A stretch of DNA of 64,000 nt, from sequence record PP892526.1; one strand, written 5' to 3'. This document shows positions 12,597-13,032 of the stretch, in pieces. Numbering within the stretch: position 1 is the stretch's first letter; the number at the start of each line of letters is the position of its first letter. Below the pieces are notes generated by a model. It ran no database searches and was not told the origin of the DNA. It was given only the letters and a program-made list of their open reading frames with translations. The DNA is from Escherichia phage vB_EcoM_I14.1. Position numbers and translations under genes: made by a program.

Positions 12597-12669
12597 TCTC
12601 AGCGGTCTTCTAAACCGCCGTTAACCGAGTAAGTGGAGTATGCGGGTTCGAGTCCTGCCGCCTCGACCA
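12597..12669 (+). tRNA. atypical tRNA-like element (anticodon loop TCT, no recognisable D-arm)
   Basis: Acceptor CGGGGCG/CGCCTCG, anticodon stem-loop GCGGT-cttctaa-ACCGC, T-arm GCGGGttcgagtCCTGC, CCA; D-arm missing and extra 22 nt before T-arm. Confidence 0.35.
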
Positions 12670-12684
12670 ATTTTGGATGAAATC

Positions 12685-13032
12685 ATGAAAACTTGTATTA
12701 GGTGCAAACTTAGCAAGGATGAAAGTGATTTCTACATGAAAGATGGTAGGAGAACTCATTCATACTGTAAAAAGTGTGTTAATGAGCAAACCATAGAAAG
12801 GCAAAGAGCACTTAAACTTACAGCTATTGAGTACAAAGGTGGGGTTTGTCATGATTGTGGTAAAAGGTATCATCCAGCAGTGTATGACTTCCATCATTTG
12901 AATCCTTCAGAGAAAGATTTTAACATTGGTCATAGAAAAAGTCTTAAGTTCTCTCAGGAGCTAAAGGACGAACTTGACAAATGTGTTTTGCTATGTTCAA
13001 ATTGCCATAGGGTAAGACATGCAAAGTATTAG
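12685..13032 (+). CDS. HNH homing endonuclease
   Basis: CxxC..CxxC zinc ligands, DFHHLNP and CSNCH motifs; ATG at 12685 just after the tRNA-like 3' end (ORF track start 12640 lies inside it). Confidence 0.8.
   Translation: MKTCIRCKLSKDESDFYMKDGRRTHSYCKKCVNEQTIERQRALKLTAIEYKGGVCHDCGKRYHPAVYDFHHLNPSEKDFNIGHRKSLKFSQELKDELDKCVLLCSNCHRVRHAKY

Follow-up and report, generated by a model that had tools for sequence, protein, structure and literature searches.

The 82-nt element at positions 12588-12669 (+ strand) of Escherichia phage vB_EcoM_I14.1 (record PP892526.1, of which a stretch of 64,000 nt, hereafter the window, was analysed) most likely serves the phage as a functional elongator tRNA-Arg(UCU) for AGA and AGG codons, with a core of non-canonical connectivity. 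In this rewired tRNA the usual D hairpin is missing, and the strand right after U8-A9 (UCUC) would instead pair with GAGU beyond the anticodon arm. The resulting D-like helix would enclose the anticodon arm and stack straight onto the anticodon stem, while a D-loop-like segment (AAGUGGAG), bearing the equivalents of G18-G19 and A20, would come after the helix and reach the T arm via UAU. The 5' strand of the D stem together with the D loop would therefore have moved from before to after the unit made of the D 3' strand and the anticodon arm, so that the rearranged core would in effect be a circular permutation of the D/anticodon domain. Known tRNA tertiary contacts suggest that the normal L shape could be retained through U8-A14, A15-U48 and the contacts of G18/G19 with the T loop.

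Parts of the proposed rewired tRNA

The features of the element are as follows.

12588-12669, + strand: whole rewired tRNA-Arg(UCU), 82 nt, encoded CCA included
12588-12594, + strand: 5' strand of the acceptor stem, CGGGGCG, pairing with 12659-12665 (7 bp)
12595-12596, + strand: putative U8 and A9 equivalents, invariant in the family alignment
12597-12600, + strand: UCUC, the strand of the D-like helix nearer the 5' end, corresponding in geometry to D-stem positions 22-25
12601, + strand: A26 equivalent, the lone nucleotide separating the D-like helix from the anticodon stem
12602-12618, + strand: anticodon arm GCGGU-CUUCUAA-ACCGC, anticodon UCU at 12609-12611
12619-12626, + strand: linker CGUUAACC, joining the 3' strand of the anticodon stem to the distal D-like strand
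12627-12630, + strand: GAGU, distal partner strand in the D-like helix, corresponding to D-stem positions 10-13
12631-12641, + strand: D-loop-like AAGUGGAG followed by UAU, invariant or nearly so in sequence, UAU being variable-region-like
12642-12658, + strand: T arm GCGGG-UUCGAGU-CCUGC, with a T loop that fits the consensus
12659-12669, + strand: acceptor 3' strand CGCCUCG, discriminator A73 (12666) and CCA (12667-12669)

An earlier, sequence-only reading of this DNA had recognised an atypical tRNA-like element here, and its acceptor stem, T arm, CCA and anticodon hairpin with TCT can all be read directly from the sequence, the start being moved from 12597 to 12588. Indeed, a 7-bp acceptor stem, a discriminator, a GTTCRA-type T arm and a 7-nt anticodon loop with U33 and a purine at 37 are present, and a local D-arm hairpin between positions 10 and 25 is absent. 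The reported failure to recognise a D arm is borne out, as only 7 nt (UAUCUCA) separate the acceptor and anticodon stems, which leaves no room for a D hairpin; the extra nucleotides ahead of the T arm are also real, and the gap between the anticodon and T stems measures 23 nt rather than 22. The suggestion of an armless tRNA holds insofar as there is no D hairpin, yet a 3-bp D-like helix that covaries and a GG-bearing D-loop-like segment are retained.

In particular, the D-like helix is made of the pairs C12598-G12629, U12599-A12628 and C12600-G12627. The nucleotides at 12595-12596 would correspond to tRNA positions 8 and 9, and the D-loop-like AAGUGGAG, which matches the D loop AAUUGGAUA of a canonical sister allele, holds the equivalents of A14, A15, G18/G19 (12635-12636) and A20 (12637), the nucleotide after GG being taken as the position 20 equivalent and the last U of UAU as position 48. 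The A at 12601 is near-invariant in an alignment of 34 family members and is replaced by C in other subfamilies. The linker (CGUUAAYC) is conserved within the subfamily of the window copy, whereas in related members a stretch of 3-5 nt (UCA, AGAAA, UGAAA) takes its place, which indicates that its length is inessential to the fold. The acceptor stem of the window copy contains a G12590.U12663 wobble, that is, G3.U70.

Covariation of the helices

The four helices of the rewired tRNA are defined by covariation. Across the 34 distinct family members aligned, 99% of the cells are paired and both partners change in 15 of 20 pairs, a degree of pairing that none of the shuffles (n=500) or slid registers of this alignment approached. 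Changes on both sides affect six of the seven pairs in the acceptor stem (G7-C66 is fixed), all five pairs in the anticodon stem and three of the five in the T stem. As for the D-like helix, the 5' side of which was left unconstrained in the search pattern for the family, its middle pair is UA in 30 members, AU in two and GC in two, and is never unpaired; moreover, all three D-like pairs covary in the paralogues retrieved by the covariance model (CGG/CCG, ACC/GGU, CCC/GGG). Another 46 distinct sequences found with the covariance model have 99.3% of cells paired, in an alignment that was itself fitted to the model structure, and RNAalifold yields the D-like helix 12598-12600/12627-12629. The anticodon loop CUUCUAA is invariant in the 34 members, as are U8, A9, A14, A15, GG and the A that follows it.

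Other pairings of the same segments were considered and rejected. CUC could pair with a second GAG (12636-12638), but that GAG stays constant when the 5' strand changes. The minimum-energy hairpin proposed by RNAfold within the 23-nt segment (CCG/UGG) clashes with the covarying D-like helix and is unable to form in paralogues with different D-like sequences. Were the hairpin placed inside a giant D loop of a canonical cloverleaf, no anticodon arm would remain.

Detection by tRNA software and models

ARAGORN reports 24 tRNAs in the 64-kb window and misses this element as well as a second atypical one described below; it finds no other tRNA-Arg(UCU), no tRNA-Trp and no tmRNA in the window. In the tRNA and covariance-model scans that the sequence-only reading had proposed, ARAGORN is silent while the Rfam tRNA model RF00005 accepts 12588-12666 at 31.7 bits (gathering score 29), but only with a collapsed D arm. 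Indeed, the Rfam alignment squeezes 15 D-arm positions into 4 nt and inserts 20 nt in the variable region, and its score derives from the acceptor, anticodon and T arms only. Folding of the single sequence is no better than that of shuffles (z = 0.04). A family-specific covariance model (R1) scores the rewired tRNA at 101.5 bits and the runner-up in the window at 26.5, a signal far beyond chance, and it finds no further family members in the window. In many records that carry the rewired tRNA, the element is unannotated or labelled 'tRNA-OTHER'.

Canonical alleles in the same slot and codon demand

In sister Felixounavirus contigs, the slot between tRNA-Ile(GAU) and tRNA-Ser(UGA) is occupied by a canonical tRNA-Arg(UCU), the sequence of which begins GCACCCUUAGUUCAA, and the rest of the tRNA set is identical. 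A canonical tRNA-Arg(UCU) likewise fills the slot in Mooglevirus, and within Kolesnikvirus L274 has the canonical and Ep030 the rewired form, each directly 3' of tRNA-Gln(UUG). No case of both forms together was found among the loci examined. The canonical tRNA-Arg(UCU) of the sister alleles and E. coli argU share with the rewired form the 7-bp acceptor stem, the T arm, the loop CUUCUAA, the encoded CCA, an AAUUGGA-like D loop with A20 and a discriminator that is A or G, and the sister-phage tRNA presumably does the same job of decoding AGA. The rewired form differs in that its D-stem strands flank the anticodon arm, its D-loop-like segment lies 3' of that arm and it has an additional 8-nt linker. 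AGA accounts for 42% (242 codons) and AGG for 9% of the Arg codons in the long ORFs of the window, and the Felix O1 genome paper described AGA as over-used with its matching tRNA missing (PMC3185647). The one-for-one swap with a canonical tRNA-Arg(UCU) and this demand for AGA are among the grounds on which the element is read as a working tRNA, which would be processed by RNase P, charged by ArgRS via A20, C35 and U36 and used on the ribosome.

A role outside translation was also weighed, in which the element would be a tRNA mimic serving as a decoy or sponge for, say, a defence nuclease directed at tRNA-Arg/Ile, a modification enzyme or ArgRS, or as the partner of a phage RNA-binding protein. 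The ribosome or EF-Tu might handle the non-canonical core poorly. In the T5 tRNA cluster, several RNAs are annotated as 'tRNA-like stable RNAs with unknown functions', the literature documents phage tRNAs that counteract tRNA nucleases (PMC10264068, PMC11555353, PMC12445682), and the gene for a DUF2828/DUF7788 protein, annotated as 'RNA-binding protein', lies immediately 5' of the tRNA cluster. A decoy, however, need not replace a canonical tRNA-Arg(UCU) in its slot, its presence there would leave a genome so rich in AGA codons without an AGA reader, and Arg members keep A20 and Ile members U20 with A73, as fits charging, so that we regard this role as unlikely. With regard to the upstream protein (ORF 9285-10700), a Ro60/Y-RNA relationship was considered and discarded, as Pfam returns DUF2828/DUF7788 only.

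Distribution of the family and identity nucleotides

The 82-nt element is identical at 13 loci and has relatives of 82-90% identity in unrelated phage families. Matches in GenBank phages amount to 262 records spanning Ounavirinae, Demerecviridae, Asteriusvirus, Stephanstirmvirinae and Vequintavirinae, and more than 100 IMG/VR contigs carry a rewired tRNA. Among 185,579 bacterial and archaeal species genomes only two match, both through contigs of metagenome-assembled genomes (MAGs), and the family is restricted to phages. Phage T5 has no family member, its top model score of 34 bits falling on tRNA-His.

The anticodons of the wider family (89 distinct members) are those of Arg (UCU, CCU, ACG, UCG) and Ile (GAU, UAU). 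The nucleotide after GG is A in 71 of 71 Arg-anticodon members, whereas it is U, together with A73, in 18 of 18 Ile-anticodon members, although in both groups shared descent makes the independent events fewer than these counts. The identity set of E. coli ArgRS comprises A20, which is its main D-loop element, C35, U36 or G36, and A or G at 73, while A73 is an identity element for IleRS. The window copy carries the A20 equivalent, C35, U36 and a purine discriminator, A73 (12666). The presence of Arg- and Ile-specific nucleotides in the respective members argues that the matching synthetases would charge them.

The wobble in the acceptor stem raises the question of alanine. The full acceptor-stem identity set for AlaRS consists of G2-C71, G3.U70, G4-C69 and A73, and AlaRS charges minihelices bearing G3.U70. 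All four features are found in the window copy, which makes mischarging with alanine possible, and G3.U70 is about ten times commoner in Arg-type members (9 of 71 distinct ones) than in canonical non-Ala tRNAs of the same loci (9 of 704). A dual or switched identity, with AlaRS charging the Felixounavirus copy partly or mainly and AGA read in part as Ala, or with an Ala-dependent role, would be in line with these features. It is nonetheless improbable, given that G3.U70 is not a conserved family feature, that the ArgRS elements A20, C35 and U36 are invariant and that reading 242 AGA codons as Ala would come at a severe cost. Indeed, G3.U70 occurs in 8 of 34 family members, the 3-70 pair being G-C in phi92, Ep030 and W70 and A-U or C-G in others. 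As a property of the whole family, an alanine tRNA or the tRNA-like domain of a tmRNA was likewise rejected, since G3.U70 varies within the family and the tag block described below occurs irrespective of tRNA type.

The HNH gene and its relation to the tRNA

12685-13032, + strand: putative free-standing HNH endonuclease gene, 115 aa, with an in-frame ATG at 12685 and a stop at 13030-13032

The HNH gene that the sequence-only reading had placed directly 3' of the element is present, its ATG lying 15 nt past the CCA rather than 16; in GenBank PP886228 the ORF is started at an upstream ATG (window position 12640), inside the T arm of the tRNA. The match of the ORF to Pfam HNH is weak (E 0.0085, 16.7 bits, below the cutoff of 21.4), its translation shows the motif DFHHLNP...CSNCH and homologues are annotated as HNH in related records.

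The window, VpaE1 and Sf16 carry the 357-bp insert that contains the HNH gene, whereas BPS15Q2 and at least eight IMG/VR Felixounavirus contigs lack it, the HNH-less allele having a clean 357-bp gap between CCAAT and TTAGTTAGCAG. The 82-nt tRNA is identical in Felixounavirus genomes with and without the gene. In Mooglevirus, the same HNH gene adjoins a normal cloverleaf tRNA-Arg(UCU), and in unrelated phage families an HNH gene adjoining a rewired tRNA belongs to a family unrelated to that of the window. A crude motif test found no enrichment of HNH-like ORFs after rewired tRNAs (6 of 107) relative to canonical ones (32 of 918; p = 0.28). The HNH gene is most probably a free-standing mobile element that sits immediately 3' of the rewired tRNA and is independent of it.

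A remodelling of the tRNA caused by the endonuclease, as the sequence-only reading had entertained, is therefore not supported: the comparison with HNH-less relatives that it had called for finds the tRNA unchanged, the same fold recurs in unrelated phages, the same HNH gene stands beside a canonical tRNA, unrelated HNH genes occur elsewhere and enrichment is lacking. Transfer of a single cassette of tRNA plus HNH gene between phage families is not supported either, as the HNH proteins are unrelated. Similarly, that the element is a pseudogene damaged by such a rearrangement is hardly credible. The proximity of the HNH gene and the lack of an ARAGORN call would fit decay, but the rewired tRNA is 100% identical over many Felixounavirus genomes, the flanks of which are about 95% identical, compensatory changes are seen in every helix, and the fold is the same in unrelated phages that have no HNH gene or an unrelated one.

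Transcriptional setting

12237-12265, + strand: sigma-70-type promoter TTGACA, 17 nt, TATAGT, with 11 of 12 consensus matches, conserved in relatives

The rewired tRNA lies within a tRNA cluster, 3' of this strong predicted promoter, which probably drives a leader RNA, the rewired tRNA, the HNH gene and the downstream tRNAs; no terminator-like site was found on the + strand up to 13650. A tmRNA-like tag sequence is located about 150 nt upstream of the rewired tRNA, and the same tag block also adjoins canonical tRNAs and occurs in places without a tRNA beside it.

This arrangement bears on a further proposal of the sequence-only reading, namely that the element is a tRNA-like processing signal. 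RNase P or RNase Z would then recognise it only in order to cut the polycistronic transcript, freeing the HNH mRNA and an upstream leader RNA. The element is indeed flanked by a structured leader RNA on one side and the HNH ORF on the other, all in one predicted transcription unit. Still, such a function is very improbable, as the element is unchanged where the HNH gene is absent and is found in many genomic contexts, and a processing signal would leave unexplained the invariant anticodon loop and the D-loop nucleotides that track Arg versus Ile, neither of which it needs.

A second atypical tRNA, Trp(CCA)

13170-13252, + strand: second atypical tRNA, Trp(CCA), with an 8-bp acceptor stem, a 4-bp T stem and an encoded CCA
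Connector of this element: 10 nt, GAUGUUAAGA
13187-13189 with 13198-13200: its D stem, 3 bp
13210-13212: its anticodon, in an arm with a 5-bp stem and a 9-nt loop, CCUCCAAAA

The second atypical element noted earlier at 13169-13251 is real and conserved in Ounavirinae, its coordinates being corrected to 13170-13252. It is missed by ARAGORN and, at the gathering score, by Rfam, the top Rfam match being to the tRNA-Sec model at 23 bits. Ten distinct variants across Ounavirinae have 99.5% of cells paired and eight pairs that change on both sides, and on this basis the element is a conserved atypical tRNA, predicted to be specific for Trp(CCA).

Comparison with known systems

The D-arm-lacking mitochondrial tRNA-Ser(AGY/UCU) of animals and nematodes has been reviewed (PMC7609411). 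Like the rewired tRNA, it lacks a D hairpin, its acceptor, anticodon and T arms meet in a three-way junction, and the strands flanking its anticodon stem pair and lengthen that arm. The model of de Bruijn and Klug (1983) reportedly has the connector regions pairing to extend the anticodon helix. Such an extension is found in the rewired tRNA, whereas the loss of D-loop/T-loop elements such as G18-G19 and the reduced, flexible core of mitochondrial-type tRNAs are not, since an invariant UGGA and a full T loop are retained. The rewired tRNA also differs in that it occurs in bacterial phages and not in organelles, covers Arg and Ile rather than Ser, has a full-size T arm and a strongly conserved core and keeps the segment with G18-G19, A14 and A20, so that the elbow contacts could persist.

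Other functional tRNAs, such as tRNA-Sec and the 8/4 and 9/3 'allo-tRNAs' (PMC7609411), also deviate from the 7/5 cloverleaf and are overlooked by standard detection. The Trp(CCA) element of the window appears to have an 8/4 acceptor/T arrangement, as some 'allo-tRNAs' do. In tRNA-Sec and 'allo-tRNAs' helix lengths are altered and the order of the arms is kept, whereas in the rewired Arg tRNA it is the connectivity of the D domain that is altered.

In Cyanidioschyzon merolae, whole tRNA genes are circularly permuted in the DNA and processing restores the normal cloverleaf. The rewired tRNA is similar in having permuted tRNA segments, but its acceptor ends are in normal order and the permuted core would be present in the mature RNA.

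Like the tRNA-like domain of tmRNA, the window copy lacks a canonical D arm and has G3.U70 and A73, and it lies near a tmRNA-like tag. In tmRNA, however, G3.U70 is conserved as an alanine identity element, the anticodon arm is missing and the mRNA-like domain separates the 5' and 3' ends. The complete anticodon arm of the rewired tRNA, with its invariant Arg loop, its local, self-contained acceptor stem and the patchy occurrence of G3.U70 set it apart from tmRNA.

Small free-standing endonuclease genes comparable to the HNH ORF of the window are found in the tRNA cluster of T5 (hegA-F), and T4 SegB is a free-standing homing endonuclease in a phage tRNA cluster. The likeness to homing endonucleases covers the HNH gene, with its clean presence or absence among close relatives, and not the fold of the tRNA.

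Implications of the proposed rewired fold

We tentatively propose, at slightly less than even odds, that these elements form an undescribed phage class of functional Arg and Ile tRNAs with a permuted D/anticodon domain, preserved L-shape contacts and a near absence from cells, which possibly escape a nuclease or a homing endonuclease. Speculatively, the fold might be kept because a tRNA-targeting nuclease of the host or a rival, reading the D arm or core, would miss it, or because a homing endonuclease that cleaves canonical tRNA-Arg genes could not cut the rewired gene. No prior description of a permuted-D fold was found in the literature covered, which includes a review of non-canonical tRNAs and, thinly, the subscription journals.

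To our knowledge, the arm order of the cloverleaf is among the most conserved features of biology, and the known exceptions, mostly organellar, shorten or delete arms. If the proposal is true, a conserved and widespread tRNA family would demonstrate that another connectivity can also yield the L shape, and it would offer a natural test of the recognition of tRNA architecture by RNase P, synthetases, EF-Tu, modification enzymes and the ribosome. If the fold is an escape from tRNA-targeting defence, it would represent a structural route beside the known changes of the anticodon loop and stem in phage tRNAs. Rewired tRNAs may also be candidate scaffolds for orthogonal tRNA engineering. Moreover, phage tRNA counts obtained with ARAGORN or tRNAscan would be incomplete and tRNA repertoires systematically under-counted. 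In particular, the rewired tRNA would explain the 'missing' AGA tRNA of the Felix O1 genome paper (PMC3185647), and Felix O1-like phages would hold a tRNA set complete for all 20 amino acids.

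The rewired tRNA-Arg(UCU)-like element

The element lies within the phage tRNA cluster, where 24 tRNAs were called by ARAGORN in the window (10866-16519), none of them an AGA/AGG-reading tRNA or a tRNA-Trp. Escherichia phage vB_EcoM_D4 matches the surrounding stretch, 12230-13620, at 100% identity; for Felix O1 and numerous further Felixounavirus genomes the figure is 95-99%. The sequence-only reading was right in describing an atypical tRNA-like element upstream of an HNH gene, with an extra segment before the T arm and the HNH ATG just 3' of the CCA; the element starts at 12588, not 12597, the segment is 23 nt, not 22, and the ATG is at 12685, 15 nt after the CCA, not 16.

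Parts of the rewired element, 5' to 3'
12588-12669: whole element, read from the sequence
Acceptor stem: CGGGGCG/CGCCUCG, 7 bp, including G3.U70
Acceptor-to-anticodon-arm stretch: U-A, then UCUC-A
Anticodon arm: GCGGU-CUUCUAA-ACCGC, anticodon UCU
Segment between anticodon arm and T arm: 23 nt, CGUUAACCGAGUAAGUGGAGUAU
T arm: GCGGG-UUCGAGU-CCUGC
3' end: discriminator A, then CCA

A standard cloverleaf, named beforehand as the refuting outcome, was not found by software, since ARAGORN did not call the element, the Rfam tRNA model barely exceeded its threshold (31.7 bits versus 29) with an alignment that needs deletion of the D arm and a 20-nt insertion in the variable region, and in single-sequence RNAfold shuffled sequences did as well (z = 0.04). 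A different fold emerges from the alignment of 34 distinct rewired sequences (A2). Here, variation in the acceptor, anticodon and T stems is free and compensated, while next to no change is seen in UAUCUCA, in the CUUCUAA of the anticodon loop or in CGUUAAYCGAGUAANUGGAGUAU. The exceptions fall in CUC and the first GAG, which form a D-like helix (CUC/GAG in 30 sequences, CGC/GCG in two and CAC/GUG in two) that is broken in none of the 34, the IMG/VR pattern that retrieved these sequences having left its 5' strand free. When the four helices are taken together, pairing holds in 99% of cells and both partners vary in 15 of 20 pairs; the covariation score is 0.752, as compared to 0.188 with shuffles and no more than 0.133 with slid registers. 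The covariance model built on A2 (R1) gives the element 101.5 bits and everything else in the window at most 26.5. In the 46 distinct paralogues that it finds at other loci, where the D-like helix is CGG/CCG, ACC/GGU or CCC/GGG, each of the three D-like pairs shows covariation and pairing holds in 99.3% of cells; the helix is also predicted by RNAalifold from an alignment fitted to the model. The covarying helices point to a three-way junction as the predicted secondary structure, made of the acceptor stem, a long arm combining the D-like helix with the anticodon stem-loop, and the T arm. The feature is real, shows strong conservation and is probably functional.

Proposed three-dimensional reading

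In standard tRNA numbering, which we infer from textbook tRNA geometry, the RNA would run through 1-7; U8 and A9; U22, C23, U24 and C25; A26; 27-43; an 8-nt linker; G10, A11, G12 and U13; A14, A15, G16, U17, G18, G19, A20 and a G; a U, an A and U48; 49-65; 66-72; and A73 and CCA. All nucleotides of the canonical core would thereby be kept, namely U8-A14, R15-Y48, G18/G19 for the T loop, A9 by the 12-23 pair, and A26, so that the backbone connections would be the only difference. The three new connections look sterically easy because known tRNA structures place the joined positions next to each other (9 by 23, 45 by 10, and 21 by 46-48). Consistently, the linker from 43 to 10, 8 nt in the window, is only 3-5 nt in relatives (UCA in locus L076, with anticodon ACG).

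Distribution

Sensitive BLAST with the 82-nt element matched 262 phage records, about 116 of which are of the Felixounavirus type with at least 95% identity, the remainder showing 82-90% over the full length. This remainder comes from Kolesnikvirus (Ep030), Demerecviridae (Roth39, Spivey, Kamaji), Asteriusvirus jumbo phages (PBECO4), Stephanstirmvirinae (phi92, W22), Vequintavirinae (W70), 145-kb Klebsiella phages and a Vibrio phage. In most records the rewired tRNA is unannotated, and in some it is labelled 'tRNA' or 'tRNA-OTHER'. Pattern scans added well over 100 contigs from IMG/VR, and among 185,579 bacterial and archaeal species genomes a similar pattern matches only two contigs, both from metagenome-assembled genomes (36-41 kb). 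No rewired tRNA was found by R1 in phage T5. The T5 record (30284-33949) carries RNA1, RNA2 and RNA3, annotated as 'tRNA-like stable RNAs with unknown functions'; its tRNA cluster has five HNH genes, and none of the annotated RNAs matches the model.

The HNH gene and the alleles of the tRNA-Arg slot

It had been proposed that the element was remodelled by endonuclease-associated rearrangement, and comparison with relatives lacking the HNH gene speaks against this. Judging from these locus alignments, the HNH gene did not create the fold, because its ORF is a clean 357-bp insert; an exactly identical element accompanies the HNH-less junction (CCAAT directly followed by TTAGTTAGCAG) in BPS15Q2 and at least eight IMG/VR Felixounavirus contigs; and in Mooglevirus Sf16 and ESh22 the same HNH gene lies directly 3' of a normal 76-nt cloverleaf tRNA-Arg(UCU). 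Three alleles, which look unrelated to one another, alternate in the slot flanked by tRNA-Ile(GAU) and tRNA-Ser(UGA); the remaining tRNA set is identical.

Alleles of the slot
Type A: the atypical (rewired) element
Type B: canonical Felixounavirus tRNA-Arg(UCU), called by ARAGORN in loci L010, L021 and L016
Type C: the canonical Mooglevirus allele

The D-loop-like AAUUGGA of most rewired members is the D loop of type B. In none of the loci examined do an atypical and a canonical copy occur together, and the one-for-one exchange recurs in Kolesnikvirus, where the slot after tRNA-Gln(UUG) holds a canonical tRNA-Arg(UCU) in locus L274 and a rewired one in Ep030. The HNH gene was seen with alleles A and C and not with B in a small sample. 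The HNH genes adjoining the rewired tRNA in Roth39, Kamaji and Ep030 belong to other HNH families, with no similarity between their proteins and that of the window, and HNH-like ORFs, counted by a crude motif test that HNH_3-type proteins escape, were not enriched 3' of rewired tRNAs (6/107 versus 32/918 for canonical ones, p = 0.28). GenBank record PP886228 starts the HNH CDS at an upstream ATG that falls within the tRNA's T arm (12640), while relatives annotate the 348-bp form starting at the equivalent of 12685.

A second atypical element

The second atypical tRNA-like element reported near the HNH gene was also recovered, at 13170-13252 rather than 13169-13251. It is tRNA-Trp(CCA)-like and conserved in Felixounavirus and Mooglevirus, with a more distant counterpart in Pectobacterium phage Arno18.

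Proposed parts of the tRNA-Trp(CCA)-like element
Acceptor stem of 8 bp combined with a T stem of 4 bp
Connector of 10 nt, GAUGUUAAGA, as against 2 nt in canonical tRNAs
3-bp D stem: CUC/GAG, CAC/GUG or CAU/GUG
Anticodon stem of 5 bp, with a loop of 9 nt, CCUCCAAAA
CCA encoded

Its 10 distinct variants show pairing in 99.5% of cells and changes on both sides in eight pairs. Since its arms are in canonical order, its deviation is of another kind than that of the rewired tRNA-Arg; the two elements have in common the motif GUUAA, D-stem strand, UAAG..GG. It is the sole Trp candidate in these phages, apart from VpaE1-type genomes, and an analysis of Mooglevirus Sf14 lists tRNAs for 19 amino acids, with no tRNA-Trp in the retrieved rows of its tRNA table (PMC12482277). 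In VpaE1_ev78 the slot holds a different, ARAGORN-called 71-nt tRNA-Trp (2287-2357), immediately followed by a second HNH-like ORF (2372-2776) with weak Pfam HNH matches, making this a second case of tRNA allele replacement beside an HNH gene.

Leader RNA and other neighbours

A conserved structured leader RNA (12360-12586), with a tmRNA-like resume region and tag, lies downstream of a promoter (12237-12265). The tag-like ORF (12404-12436) reads AAAAUAAAU GCA AAC GAC AAU GUU UUU CUG GCA GUA GCU UGA, encoding ANDNVFLAVA*. Homologous blocks carry ANDAQFLAVA (Ep030), ANDNAFLAVA, ANDDQFLAVA, ANDTQYLAVA and ANDDTILMVA, and the comparison with Ep030 shows, in the tag frame, four synonymous substitutions, one stop-to-stop change and two adjacent amino-acid replacements. 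The hairpins downstream of the tag covary. Rfam gives only weak matches, to tmRNA (E 0.006) and permuted tmRNA, and no tRNA-like domain was detectable in the block. In the Ounavirinae examined, a promoter lies on one side of the block and a tRNA gene, of whichever type, on the other.

Within the promoter-leader interval, 12281-12358 (about 78 nt) is present in the window and BPS15Q2 and missing in VpaE1, Sf16 and ESh22. Just upstream of the tRNA cluster, a 471-aa ORF (9285-10700), called 'RNA-binding protein' in PP886228, matches only DUF2828 and DUF7788 in Pfam; a speculative reading would make it a Ro60-like protein whose partner RNA is encoded close by. Directly upstream of tRNA-Leu(UAG) is a long near-perfect hairpin (13516-13609), kept in relatives with some changes and giving only spurious microRNA-precursor matches in Rfam. 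The tRNA-Ser(UGA) at 13266-13355 scores 33.2 bits with the Rfam tRNA model and 39 with the tRNA-Sec model, below the latter's gathering score of 47; PP886228 does not annotate it, and in that record the tRNA locus tags 0009 and 0010, due between tRNA-Ile and tRNA-Leu, are missing. In Ep030, another unannotated tRNA-like sequence (about 1600-1695, 3' end GAGAGGUUCGAAUCCUUAAUCACUCGCCA), not called by ARAGORN, sits between an HNH-like ORF and the leader-block promoter.

Charging and demand

The E. coli ArgRS uses A20 as its principal non-anticodon identity element, while in E. coli tRNA-Ile position 20 is U and A73 is required. When all retrieved loci were searched with a relaxed parser, a wider family of 89 distinct members emerged, all with the GUAUCNC...GNGUAA core and with anticodons of Arg (UCU 59, CCU 6, ACG 5, UCG 1) or Ile (GAU 9, UAU 9) type. 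The GG is followed by A in 71/71 Arg members and by U in 18/18 Ile members, A73 being present in 18/18 of the latter, although these counts include related sequences and thus overstate the number of independent events. Selection for aminoacylation would predict such a tie of the anticodon to core positions far from it, which is hard to explain if the RNA were a decoy or a processing signal.

The demand for an AGA-reading tRNA is clear, since AGA accounts for 42% of Arg codons in the long ORFs of the window and a tRNA for the over-used AGA was expected and not found in the Felix O1 genome paper (PMC3185647). Being charged and used in translation is the probable role of the rewired RNA. The window copy may possibly be mischarged, as it contains G2-C71, G3.U70 (12590/12663), G4-C69 and A73 (12666). 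These form the acceptor-stem set recognised by AlaRS. G3.U70 is enriched among distinct Arg-type members (9/71 versus 9/704 canonical non-Ala tRNAs of the same loci, whose tRNA-Ala have it in 18/18), but it is not conserved across the rewired family.

Significance of the fold

The closest analogue is the D-armless mitochondrial tRNA-Ser, in which the connectors flanking the anticodon stem are also thought to pair; unlike the phage RNA, these species have no D-loop elements and, to our knowledge, occur in organelles only. The canonical tRNA-Arg(UCU) genes whose place the element takes come second. Neither phages nor such a fold are mentioned in a 2020 review of non-canonical tRNAs (PMC7609411), and no description turned up in full-text searches of an incomplete literature collection, so that an earlier one is possible.

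Some phage tRNAs are known to withstand tRNA-targeting nucleases owing to an altered anticodon loop or stem (PMC10264068, PMC11555353, PMC12445682), and one may speculate that the rewired core is a more radical form of such resistance. Equally speculatively, the divergent gene sequence could confer immunity to a homing endonuclease cutting canonical tRNA-Arg genes. The element would represent a tRNA with permuted D-domain connectivity. It is more interesting than the sequence-only reading had suggested, and for another reason.
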